A DNA stretch of 64,000 bases, taken from assembly GCA_964605525.1 (NCBI GenBank), contig CAZSCV010000004.1, forward strand, positions 38,667 through 102,666. Reading direction: 5' to 3'. Numbering within the stretch: the first letter of the stretch is position 1; each line of letters begins with the position of its first letter. Source of the stretch: an uncultured Bdellovibrionales bacterium (GTDB lineage: Bacteria > Patescibacteriota > Minisyncoccia > Moranbacterales > UBA9337). This document shows, in pieces, positions 37,331 to 37,635 of the stretch. The position numbers and the translations under genes are program-made. The notes under the pieces were generated by a model. It was not told the DNA's origin, searched no databases, and saw only the letters and a list, made by a program, of their open reading frames with translations.

Positions 37331-37635
37331 TGCCTCGGGTCAGAATCGGACTGACGACACAAGGATTTTCCTTATTTGTTATCTTGAGTTTCCCCAAGTA
37401 TCGGACTATCTCATCATCCCGCTTTTTTGGCGGGAGTCGGGCGCTATTATAGGATTATTGTTGGGACTCACCTATTAGTCTCTACACCTTTCTTGATACT
37501 AAAACCCATCAAGACTTGGCTCGGGATTACCATATTTTCACTTAGGCTTCCCCGAATTCACCCGATTTTCATCTCCGCATTACTGCGAAGTGGACCGAAA
37601 ACCAGTCCTTTGCTCTACCACTGAGCTACCGAGGC
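37331..37635 (-). tRNA. tRNA-Phe (GAA) interrupted by a group I intron in the anticodon loop
   Basis: Exon 1 (37604-37635, reverse complement) gcctcgg-ta-gctcagtggtagagc-a-aagga-cu; exon 2 (37331-37370) gaaaa-tcctt-gtgtc-gtcag-tccgatt-ctgac-ccgaggc-a. Joined loop CU-GAA-AA, variable loop GUGUC and A73 all match tRNA-Phe. Confidence 0.7.
37371..37603 (-). ncRNA. group I intron (233 nt) in tRNA-Phe
   Basis: 5' exon ends in U and pairs (ggacu with ggucc, U·G) with an internal guide-like sequence; intron ends in G. Group I core elements: P-like aaugcggag, R-like guagagacuaauagg, S-like gagauaguccg, P7 gacua/uaguc. No ORF inside. Confidence 0.65.

Follow-up and report, generated by a model that had tools for sequence, protein, structure and literature searches.

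We asked whether the two halves of a tRNA-Phe gene found on one Patescibacteria contig belong to a functional gene split by a group I intron, and whether such an arrangement is exceptional in this phylum. We searched the window, that is, the whole 64-kb stretch of DNA analysed (matched at 99.7% by the NCBI MAG GCA_007376775.1), with ARAGORN in default mode and with introns allowed. The default run called no tRNA-Phe in the 64-kb window and missed the split gene; with introns allowed, the unspliced DNA returned tRNA-Phe(gaa) i(33,233). No second tRNA-Phe was called by ARAGORN within the window. The gene occupies 37331-37635 on the minus strand and consists of exon 1, a 233-nt intron and exon 2, and the extent and intron length proposed by the sequence-only reading proved exact to the base. 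Its three parts are as follows.

37604..37635, minus strand, tRNA-Phe 5′ exon of 32 nt, ending ...AAGGACU33 (ARAGORN with introns allowed; alignment with 97 homologues)
37371..37603, minus strand, group I intron of 233 nt without an ORF (RF00028; covariation in 98 sequences; MFE fold)
37331..37370, minus strand, tRNA-Phe 3′ exon of 40 nt, GAAAAUCCUU...CCGAGGCA, running from G34 A35 A36 to A73 (ARAGORN with introns allowed)

The 5′ exon corresponds to nt 1-33 of the standard numbering, with a length of 32 nt because position 17 is absent, and it contains the acceptor 5′ strand, the D arm, the anticodon-stem 5′ strand, C32 and U33. The intron begins with GGUUUUCGGUCC and ends with ...AAUAAG. No CCA is encoded at the 3′ end of the tRNA, where the next bases are CAAU. 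Joining the exons at the predicted junction (...GGACU/GAAAAUCC...) gave a canonical 72-nt tRNA-Phe(GAA), and ARAGORN identified the spliced 72-mer as tRNA-Phe(gaa). The anticodon loop CU-GAA-AA, the variable loop GUGUC and A73 were all found as previously described, and the acceptor, D and T stems were fully paired. Position 55 carries C, not the near-universal U, an unusual feature common to eight homologues.

The intron was compared with the Rfam group I covariance model, the check proposed in the sequence-only reading. RF00028 (Intron_gpI) matched at 37613-37382(-) over the full model (positions 1-253) with 86 bits and E=1.6e-20, above the gathering threshold of 50. The MFE fold (z=-3.1) recovered P2, P3, P4, P5, P6/6a, P8 and P9, and every helix was intact in the window copy. 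The elements are listed below.

37604..37608, minus strand, P1 5′ strand, exon GGACU ending in U33 (37604 is the 5′ splice-site nucleotide), paired with GGUCC
37592..37603, minus strand, internal guide sequence GGUUUUC-GGUCC; its initial 7 nt pair with the 3′ exon as P10, its final 5 nt with the 5′ exon as P1
37364..37370, minus strand, P10 3′ strand, 3′ exon GAAAAUC (G34-C40), 7 bp in the window
37573..37590, minus strand, P2 hairpin CUUCGCA-GUAA-UGCGGAG with a GNRA loop, 7/7 pairs with compensatory changes
37559..37565, minus strand, P3 5′ strand UCGGGUG, paired with CGCCCGA; 99.9% of cells paired, four pairs compensatory
37437..37443, minus strand, P3 3′ strand CGCCCGA, the partner of UCGGGUG (alignment)
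37521..37555, minus strand, P4 (UCGGGG/UCCCGA, the classical elements P and Q) enclosing P5 (Rfam; covariation)
37486..37520, minus strand, P6 (GCC/GGU) and P6a (UCUUGAU/AUCAAGA), pairs mostly compensatory
37476..37480, minus strand, P7 5′ strand GACUA (element R), following G-A (G154 and bulged A155 in pre-tRNA numbering; Rfam)
37449..37475, minus strand, extra P7.1-like hairpin between P7 and P3′, AUAGG, 17-nt loop UGAGUCCCAACAAUAAU, CCUAU, with a covarying stem
37417..37435, minus strand, P8 hairpin UCCCGC-CAAAAAA-GCGGGA, outer pairs supported, inner pairs poorly aligned (69.5%)
37404..37408, minus strand, P7 3′ strand UAGUC (element S); UAGUCC invariant in 98/98
37383..37398, minus strand, P9 hairpin CUUGGG-GAAA-CUCAAG (Rfam; MFE fold; covariation)
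37371, minus strand, terminal guanosine (omega G), the last nucleotide of the intron (ARAGORN with introns allowed)

Most of the anatomy read earlier from the letters was recovered here, including the 5′ splice site after U33, the P1 pairing GGACU/GGUCC with its U33·G wobble, the terminal G of the intron and the P7 pairing GACUA/UAGUC. The segment aaugcggag, which had been labelled P-like, belongs instead to the 3′ strand of P2; the true P and Q elements, the two P4 strands, are gugaaUUCGGGGaa and aaUCCCGAgcc. Within P7, the G-C pair 37480/37404 is the presumed guanosine-binding pair, by analogy with canonical group I architecture. The P5 of the window (CCUAAG...UAUGG) is presumably the 11-nt GAAA-receptor consensus, which was exact in only 5 of 100 homologues; this element, the GNRA L2 and the GAAA L9 are peripheral elements that could stabilise the fold. 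P1 sequesters the anticodon-stem 5′ strand, which would couple tRNA folding to splicing. The earlier statement that the intron has no ORF also stood: the sense strand holds no endonuclease ORF, with a longest stop-free stretch of 29 codons, and the sole ORF of at least 60 aa across the intron, a TTG ORF of 65 aa, runs on the opposite strand. The window intron is therefore no homing intron in the sense of encoding its own endonuclease.

We scanned GTDB species genomes with a sequence pattern and obtained at least 117 loci. The results showed that at least 98 GTDB species, almost all Patescibacteria, carry tRNA-Phe(GAA) genes split at the same U33/G34 site, with U33 preceding the intron in all 98 split loci. 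The 100 Phe introns measured were all 202-336 nt long, and the closest intron among the 117 matches listed was no more than about 79% identical to that of the window. A MAFFT alignment of 98 sequences (A1) was then tested against the P1-P10 structure model. In this alignment 92.4% of cells were paired, compared with 35-48% when the partners were slid, 51 of the 85 pairs showed compensatory double changes, and none of 500 shuffles reached any observed measure. P4 and P6/6a were 89-99% paired, P7 was 100% paired, and the P7.1-like stem was also 100% paired, with compensatory changes in four of its five pairs. P9, which occurs in 53/98 homologues, was 95.9% paired with 6/6 pairs compensatory; P5 and the inner P8 pairs were weak.

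Covariation also extended to the helices formed with the exons. The splice-site U33·G wobble was invariant (98/98), and the two P1 pairs next but one to it switched together with the anticodon stem (GC61/CG36 and AU50/CG48). The P10 pair at A37/G37 likewise switched across homologues (UA49/CG46), and a P10 of 4-8 bp was present in 96/100 of them. P1 and P10 together averaged 10.55 bp per locus, compared with 8.16 +/- 0.23 when introns were matched to the exons of other loci (maximum of 200 shuffles, 8.66). The P7 3′ strand UAGUCC and the J3/4 AA were invariant though both lie outside the search pattern; the pattern itself partly forces the P7 5′ strand to be invariant, the conservation of the P7.1-like loop reflects ascertainment by it, and the omega G in 98/98 is circular because the exon mapper required G. 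The compensatory changes that the family shows in the core, P1 and P10 require that both folding and splice-site pairing have been under selection.

A tRNA-Phe host in a CPR-like genome had been expected to be unusual, an expectation that fails against two publications and the survey described here. Among the seed sequences of Williams 2020 (bioRxiv 10.1101/2020.01.27.920355) is Mba55.Phe.2Ug, an intron of tRNA-Phe placed at loop position 2 (33/34), with U(-1) and G(omega); its sequence matches our locus L014 by inspection. In Nakagawa et al. 2026 (mSystems, PMC13011429, Table 1/S3), Phe(GAA) 33/34 is given for Doudnabacteria GCA_016699995.1, as the single case among 95 complete genomes. A split tRNA-Phe is ordinary for Patescibacteria, and this exact type was catalogued in both 2020 and 2026; the classical list of host tRNAs (Leu, fMet/Ile and Arg), on which the expectation had been based, is the pre-2020 picture. 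Judged by its sequence, the window locus is one more member, in a P9-bearing sub-class, of the described 'Phe.2Ug' or 'Phe(GAA) 33/34' class; in observed anatomy, family membership and distribution it represents no new class. The two published introns resemble that of the window in host tRNA (Phe, GAA), in the site after U33, in U(-1)/G(omega) and in phylum. They also have in common with it the core segments AAAUCGGGUGAAyUCGGGGAA, AAUCCCGAGCC, GGUGUAGAGACUA, AGCGCCCGAC and GAkAUAGUCC, and the same extra hairpin, with the loop GUGAGyCCAACAAUAAUC. The window intron aligned end to end with both in A1, and the aligned intron columns were 55.5% and 59.7% identical. Both published introns belong to a shorter class without P9, with exons GCCCU/GAAGA or GCCU/GAAGA, whereas that of the window, with exons GGACU/GAAAA, falls in the P9-bearing class.

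The Patescibacteria introns of tRNA-Asn and tRNA-Asp in Nakagawa et al. 2026 come from the same phylum and have the same overall architecture, but they sit in other host tRNAs and at 35/36, not 33/34. The tRNA-Asn introns have the P7.1-like hairpin and its loop sequence, the GNRA L2, J8/7 and P7 in common with the window intron; their P4 is UUGCGGG/CCGCAG with J6/7 UC, compared with UUCGGGG/CCCGAG and GU in the Phe intron. Some Asn introns carry HNH endonuclease ORFs, whereas none occurred in the surveyed Phe introns (maximum 336 nt). Classical IC3 introns (Anabaena/Nostoc tRNA-Leu 34/35, Azoarcus tRNA-Ile and fMet/Ile2 33/34, the last exemplified by Acidobacteriota GCA_016700075.1 in the accessible portion of Table S5, PMC13011429) are like the window intron in their anticodon-loop site, absence of an ORF and length of about 200-250 nt, and the fMet/Ile2 site is the same 33/34. 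Their P4-P6-J6/7-P7 core is nearly identical to that of the window (AAAUUCGGGGAAGCCUAA..., GAUCCCGAGCCAAG, GAAAGGUGUAGAGACU), and both have GNRA loops on P2 and P9. However, the hairpin that the window intron has between P7 and P3′ (37449-37475, 27 nt) is absent from IC3 introns; this extra helix sets it outside subgroup IC3, although the rest of its core is IC3-like. Subgroup IA would be expected to have P7.1 and P7.2, and the window has one hairpin, not two. In the available part of PMC13011429, no Patescibacteria tRNA intron is classed as IC and nearly all are IA, and tRNA introns with an insert between P7 and P3′ are labelled IA1/IA2. A further group I intron in tRNA-Phe(GAA), that of Elusimicrobiota GCA_023213235.1 (31/32, IA3; the part of Table S5 available from Nakagawa et al. 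2026), differs in site, phylum and core and is without the GUGAG...AACAAUAAUC insert; by sequence, it looks like an independent insertion.

It is very probable that the window carries a Patescibacteria tRNA-Phe(GAA) gene split between U33 and G34 by a 233-nt, ORF-less group I intron that is predicted to self-splice. The gene would probably be co-transcribed with the upstream tRNA-Leu and tRNA-Val. The predicted fold of the intron is the usual group I core (P3-P9, the P3/P7 pseudoknot included), to which one hairpin between P7 and P3′ is added, and the guide GGUUUUC-GGUCC would pair with both the end of exon 1 (P1, GGACU, U33·G) and the start of exon 2 (P10, GAAAAUC). In the usual group I reaction, P7 would bind a free guanosine that attacks behind U33; the 3′-OH exposed on U33 would in turn attack the junction following the terminal G (37371). 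The exons would be ligated to give the anticodon loop CUGAAAA, with release of the intron, and RNase P, 3′ trimming and CCA addition would finish the tRNA. We infer this splicing chemistry, its independence of protein and the status of the split gene as the only tRNA-Phe gene of its genome. In the accessible portion of PMC13011429, two Patescibacteria introns of the same broad group, hosted by tRNA-Asn and tRNA-Asp, self-spliced precisely in vitro, and the tests given there covered only Asn and Asp 35/36 introns.

The gene could instead be a pseudogene in which the intron decays as a relic, with the cell relying on an uninterrupted tRNA-Phe elsewhere in its genome. Such a gene might lie beyond the 64 kb that are visible, and uninterrupted tRNA-Phe genes in the syntenic relatives L189, L165 and L204 indicate that the lineage can do without the intron. 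The odd C55 in the T-loop could likewise be read as decay, but the eight other species with C55 differ in the T stem, which points to a lineage trait and not to random damage. The full pairing of the acceptor, D and T stems, the intact helices of the intron and the compensatory evolution of the family in P1, P10 and the core all argue against a relic. So does the complete Doudnabacteria genome with a homologous intron, for which two tool blocks in the available part of Table S2 (PMC13011429) give a single Phe gene; ARAGORN and tFind both call the split one. In the same portion of that table, CPR genomes usually have one gene per isoacceptor. We therefore regard a relic as very unlikely. An assembly chimera, or a wrong host tRNA or splice site, is scarcely credible. 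Over 36532-41586, which takes in the whole split gene, the independent ENA assembly record L247 and the window are 100% identical, so the split gene did not arise as a one-off artefact of assembly. Homologous split genes are present in at least 98 species. Splice-site and host assignment can fail in this family: ARAGORN with introns allowed mislabelled about 10 homologous loci (about one in ten) as Pro, Ser, Val, Ile or Trp and alternated between i(33) and i(34), and Asn/Thr and Asp/Ala mis-assignments and the same kind of boundary ambiguity are documented in published annotations (PMC13011429). In the window, however, only one pair of boundaries leaves an anticodon loop of 7 nt together with U(-1)/G(omega). 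A shift to G34/A35 would yield the same mature RNA, but 23% of the introns begin with A, where that placement is impossible, so that 33/34 alone fits the whole family. The spliced tRNA body is identical at 70-72/72 positions to the uninterrupted tRNA-Phe genes of L165, L142 and L204. What we take to be the E. coli PheRS identity set (U20, G34, A35, A36, U45, U59, U60 and A73) is also present in full.

A further reading accepts a genuine group I intron but denies its autonomy, with splicing dependent on a host protein or slow enough to act as a regulatory checkpoint on tRNA-Phe supply. The retention of an intron that lacks a homing endonuclease across about 100 species whose genomes are reduced, and the coupling of tRNA folding to splicing when P1 takes the anticodon-stem 5′ strand, would suit such a role, and an 'RNA-based regulatory element' is raised in the accessible part of Nakagawa et al. 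(PMC13011429). However, the window intron offers no pointer to a cofactor site or a ligand-responsive element, its peripheral elements (GNRA L2, GAAA L9, receptor-like P5) are those expected of a self-sufficient ribozyme, and its Asn/Asp relatives splice alone in vitro. Close relatives also live without the intron, which argues against an essential regulatory role. Dependence on a host factor or a regulatory delay is therefore unlikely, and autonomous self-splicing remains the preferred reading.

Since syntenic relatives carry uninterrupted tRNA-Phe genes, the Phe intron is widespread but optional in Patescibacteria. A metagenome scan for uninterrupted alleles gave 4/120 of CPR type, most of the others coming from other phyla with a longer D loop. 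A 'very recent' gain or loss is unsupported, as in pairs of one locus with and one without the intron the identity of the coding flanks is only about 70%. It is conceivable, though on balance rather doubtful, that the intron is still moving or being precisely deleted in this phylum without an endonuclease of its own, and, linked to this, that in the P9-less half of the family a helix joining the intron 3′ tail to the anticodon-stem 3′ strand stands in for P9. Movement might proceed by reverse splicing into the highly conserved CU/GAA anticodon loop or through an endonuclease acting in trans, and would explain why intron presence differs among syntenic relatives with identical mature tRNA-Phe. 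The tail:anticodon-stem helix, if real, would present the 3′ splice site in a manner not yet described; in the window, no pairing of the intron tail with the 3′ exon of the P9-less kind was found (4.27 vs 4.05 bp). Neither idea concerns anything unusual in the window copy. The window ORF 50472-51539 was considered as a free-standing homing endonuclease and rejected, as it encodes a sigma-70 factor; it had matched loci with tRNA-Asn introns, where the sigma-70 gene merely neighbours tRNA-Asn.

Dependence of translation on tRNA intron ribozymes has already been argued for the phylum in the literature. If tRNA-Phe is single-copy, as in one complete genome, the translation of every Phe codon would depend on a predicted ribozyme. 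Default tRNA finders skip the split gene, so that such a genome would be scored as being without tRNA-Phe, and the mislabelling of about one in ten homologues by intron-aware ARAGORN carries a similar consequence for annotation. Present in at least 98 GTDB species from many CPR lineages, the Phe class is much commoner than the one in 95 complete genomes of the 2026 paper suggests.

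The tRNA-Phe(GAA) gene consists of two exons separated by a group I intron, and it lies among the following features:

38586-38017, minus strand: rplS
38010-37989, minus strand: terminator
37635-37604, minus strand: tRNA-Phe 5' exon, reading GCCUCGGUAGCUCAGUGGUAGAGCAAAGGACU
37603-37371, minus strand: intron (233 nt)
37370-37331, minus strand: tRNA-Phe 3' exon, reading GAAAAUCCUUGUGUCGUCAGUCCGAUUCUGACCCGAGGCA
37320-37241, minus strand: hairpin followed by U8 in the tRNA-Phe/tRNA-Met spacer (-31.5 kcal/mol, z = -5.5)

Joining the exons gave a 72-nt RNA that ARAGORN folds into a canonical tRNA-Phe(GAA) with the 7-nt anticodon loop CUGAAAA, the variable loop GUGUC and A73, and the unspliced genomic sequence, with introns allowed, was called as tRNA-Phe(gaa) i(33,233). 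The Rfam group I intron model matched the 233 nt at full length with 86 bits (E = 1.6e-20; threshold, 50 bits), the sole Rfam group I match in the window. The results bear out, to the base, the split tRNA-Phe(GAA) with a 233-nt group I intron proposed by the sequence-only reading, as well as its claim that the intron has no ORF: no protein fits in the intron, whose longest sense-strand stop-free stretch is 29 codons. An assembly accident is ruled out, because the independent ENA assembly record L247 matches window positions 36532-41586 at 100% identity, split gene included, and the NCBI MAG GCA_007376775.1 matches the window at 99.7% identity over their overlap. The feature is real and well formed; the intron is very probably an active self-splicing one, and the tRNA-Phe gene that contains it very probably functional. 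A default tRNA scan of the window missed this gene and called only the neighbouring Leu(gag), Val(tac), Met(cat) and Gly(gcc); for annotation, default tools miss or mislabel such split tRNA-Phe genes. The host is a Patescibacteria bacterium; window proteins showed 40-77% identity to Patescibacteria loci, and the best synteny was with MAGs labelled Moranbacteria.

The T loop of the tRNA-Phe reads UCCGAUU, with C55 at window position 37349 on the minus strand. Bacterial tRNAs almost always carry U55, the pseudouridine-55 site, which pairs with G18, and the other window tRNAs have the normal UUCGA in the T loop. Eight further tRNA-Phe genes that carry the intron also have C55, and their T stems differ (related loci L031, L036, L040, L050, L078, L097, L107 and L113).

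The structure model of the intron comprises the following elements, with pre-tRNA position i corresponding to window coordinate 37636 - i:

P1, minus strand: exon GGACU (pre-tRNA 28-32) with GGUCC (40-44), U33 in a U.G wobble
P10, minus strand: GGUUUUC (pre-tRNA 33-39, intron bases 1-7) with GAAAAUC (266-272, exon 2 bases 1-7)
P2, minus strand: CUUCGCA-GUAA-UGCGGAG
P3, minus strand: UCGGGUG/CGCCCGA
P4, minus strand: UCGGGG/UCCCGA
P5, minus strand: CCUAAG...UAUGG
P6/P6a, minus strand: present in the model
P7, minus strand: GACUA/UAGUC, with G and a bulged A directly 5'
Extra hairpin, minus strand: AUAGG-(17 nt)-CCUAU, between P7 and the P3 3' strand
P8, minus strand: UCCCGC/GCGGGA
P9, minus strand: CUUGGG-GAAA-CUCAAG
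Intron 3' tail, minus strand: 12 nt, last base G

The P1 and P10 strands adjoin, and therefore a single contiguous 12-nt guide aligns both exons. A thermodynamic fold of the intron recovered P2, P3, P4, P5, P6/6a, P8 and P9 (-67.4 kcal/mol, z = -3.1), and none of 200 shuffles was equally stable. The segment aaugcggag, earlier labelled P-like, proved to be the P2 3' strand; the true P and Q elements are the P4 strands UUCGGGG and CCCGAG. We take CCUAAG...UAUGG in P5 to be the consensus 11-nt receptor for a GAAA loop. The Azoarcus intron is held together by an L9-GAAA/P5-receptor contact, and by analogy the same contact may form in the window intron; the exact 11-nt receptor motif was present in only 5 of 100 relatives.

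After the terminator at 38010-37989, the gene order is tRNA-Leu, tRNA-Val, split tRNA-Phe, the stable hairpin, tRNA-Met and tRNA-Gly, with only 4 nt between tRNA-Val and the split gene. The split gene probably comes last in a Leu-Val-Phe transcript, which the hairpin, long and very stable, would end directly after it; the hairpin looks like an intrinsic terminator, and its internal loops kept a simple terminator scan from reporting it. As in group I splicing generally, a free guanosine docked in P7 would cleave the RNA directly downstream of U33. The 3'-OH of U33 would in turn attack the junction behind the terminal G (37371), positioned by P10, which would yield the CUGAAAA anticodon loop and liberate the intron. 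Maturation of the tRNA would be completed by RNase P, trimming of the 3' end and addition of CCA, which the gene does not encode. This chemistry is ascribed to the window intron from its family, with indirect support because two Patescibacteria tRNA introns (Asn, Asp) are described as self-splicing in vitro (Nakagawa et al. 2026, PMC13011429). In Table S2 of that paper, the one complete genome with the homologous intron has a single Phe gene, and its split gene is reported as called by both ARAGORN and tFind. The window gene would lend itself to a simple splicing assay.

One genome per GTDB species was scanned with the pattern GTAGAGACTANNNNGTGAGN{3,4}AACAATAATC, which combines the 5' strand of P7 with the loop of the extra hairpin. 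At least 117 loci matched, nearly all of them Patescibacteria MAGs among the matches listed, with labels including Moran-, Falkow-, Magasanik-, Doudna-, Wolfe-, Berkel-, Peregrini-, Gracili- and Saccharibacteria. ARAGORN called most of the loci as tRNA-Phe(gaa) with an intron; the Pro, Ser, Val, Ile and Trp identities that it gave to homologues were rejected, these being Phe genes with mis-set boundaries. Our own exon mapper assigned at least 98 loci to tRNA-Phe(GAA) genes interrupted after U33, to which the window and the published Doudnabacteria gene are added; the introns of this set measure 202-336 nt. They began with G in 77% of cases and with A in 23%; a first G lets a one-base shift give the same product, hence the i(33)/i(34) alternation of ARAGORN, and with a first A, 33/34 is the only workable site. 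The remaining loci were cut by block edges or had other hosts, one being a tRNA-Leu(UAA) in a Pseudomonadota MAG and several being tRNA-Asn genes whose introns hold HNH-type ORFs.

The group I introns of five tRNA-Asn(GUU) genes (L013, L027, L072, L077 and L090) carry an ORF with an HNH-like C-x-N-C-H motif and match the endonuclease-bearing Asn 35/36 introns of Nakagawa et al. 2026. ARAGORN intron mode mis-mapped the boundaries of 11 loci (L005, L014, L023, L030, L055, L056, L064, L082, L098, L104 and L112), reporting them as Pro, Ser, Val, Tyr, Ile, Trp or Phe(aaa), some as over-long 'tRNAs'; re-mapping by U33 and the terminal G restored tRNA-Phe(GAA) in each. CPR-type split tRNA-Phe genes with CPR-like neighbours also occur in many 'MAG TPA_asm' records titled uncultured Gammaproteobacteria or Bdellovibrionales (L007, L008, L010, L030, L037, L044, L056, L078, L087, L089, L091 and others), whose NCBI organism labels are probably wrong. 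Six contigs of the viral collection IMG/VR (L118-L123) contain group I introns that lie outside tRNA genes and share the extra-hairpin loop, GUGAG...AACAAUAAUC; their P4 (UUCGGUG/ACCGAG) differs from that of the Phe introns, four of the six passed the Rfam threshold, and ARAGORN found no tRNA around them. Coding-looking sequence directly follows the core in L120 and L123.

In a 98-sequence alignment of intron-bearing tRNA-Phe(GAA) loci, window included, 92.4% of cells were paired under the structure model, compared to 35-48% when the 3' partners were slid by 1-3 columns. Both sides changed in 51 of 85 pairs, the covariation score was 0.42 versus 0.15 for shuffles, and none of 500 shuffles matched any observed measure. 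The U33.G wobble was present in 98 of 98 sequences; the P1 pairs beside it showed GC61/CG36 and AU50/CG48 switches tracking the anticodon stem, and the P10 pair opposite position 37 showed a UA49/CG46 switch tracking A37/G37. P1 plus P10 averaged 10.55 bp with each intron's own exons versus 8.16 ± 0.23 bp with exons of other loci (maximum, 8.66 bp in 200 shuffles). The P7 3' strand UAGUCC and J3/4 AA were invariant though outside the search pattern; that pattern itself imposes the constancy of the 5' strand of P7 and of the extra-hairpin loop, as the exon mapper does that of the terminal G, and the inner pairs of P5 and P8 align poorly. Together, these results are the mark of a ribozyme whose function, and whose match to its own splice sites, have been maintained for a long time.

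The class is far commoner than 1 in 95 complete genomes suggests: at least 98 GTDB species carry the split tRNA-Phe. Two forms were found: one with P9 (52 of 100, window included), with exons mostly GGACU/GAAAA, and one without P9 (48 of 100, both published examples included), with exons mostly GCCCU/GAAGA. In the P9-less form, the 3' tail (the last ~8 nt, e.g. UCAGCUUC before the terminal G; examples are L003, L014, L020, L071 and GCA_016699995.1) is complementary to the anticodon-stem 3' strand and co-varies with the stem, its helix averaging 6.6 bp versus 5.4 ± 0.14 bp with shuffled partners. This helix may stand in for P9 or present the 3' splice site; the complementarity does not hold in the window's P9-bearing form.

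The intron is optional. Uninterrupted CPR-type tRNA-Phe genes occur in L189 (2569-2641), L165 (3139-3211), L204 (917-989) and L142 (629-703), in tRNA clusters shared with relatives that have the intron. L189 shares the window order rplS, Leu(gag), Val(tac), Phe, Gly(gcc), and L165 and L204 have an Ile-Met-Phe-Pro arrangement; the 72-nt mature tRNA-Phe sequences of L165 and L204 are identical to those of the intron-bearing L075/L094 and L051. Coding flanks of intron-plus and intron-minus pairs are only ~70% identical, so the gain or loss of the intron lies between related genera or families, not strains.

Confinement of bacterial tRNA introns to Leu(UAA), fMet/Ile(CAU) and Arg(CCU), against which a Phe host had seemed unusual, is the pre-2020 picture, and Phe cases have since been published. 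Williams 2020 (bioRxiv 10.1101/2020.01.27.920355) raised the known settings from 4 to 21, and its seed alignment holds 'Mba55.Phe.2Ug', an intron of tRNA-Phe inserted at position 2 of the loop, with U(-1) and G(omega); the sequence of this entry matches, by inspection, that of L014, from Parcubacteria GW2011_GWD2_38_12. Nakagawa et al. (mSystems 2026, PMC13011429; preprint 2025) give the sequence of a Phe(GAA) 33/34 intron in Doudnabacteria GCA_016699995.1, which can be aligned over its whole length with the window intron (59.7% identity), and report in Elusimicrobiota another Phe intron, distinct from it and placed at 31/32. The P4-P6-J6/7-P7 core of the window intron is almost the same as in the IC3 tRNA introns of their Table S5, whereas its hairpin between P7 and P3' is absent from IC3. 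According to that paper, none of the Patescibacteria tRNA introns is classed as IC and nearly all are IA; insert-bearing tRNA introns are labelled IA1/IA2 there. Judged by its sequence, we describe the window intron as an IC3-like core with an IA-type insert and give it no formal subgroup label. Because host, site, phylum and intron lineage are all published, the kind is already known, and the locus is one more member.

Elsewhere in the window, positions 6619-6711 (minus strand) matched the c-di-GMP-II-GAG riboswitch aptamer (RF03169; 43.1 bits, threshold 40) upstream of ORFs 6422-5829 and 5772-5041, both with Camelysin/Peptidase_M73 matches; a possible riboswitch for cyclic-di-GMP in a CPR genome of reduced size may merit separate study. 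The ORF at 32890-33384 (minus strand) contains a SocA/Panacea antitoxin domain (PF13274, E = 9e-23), and the adjoining ORFs encode an MFS transporter and a TrmB-like regulator.
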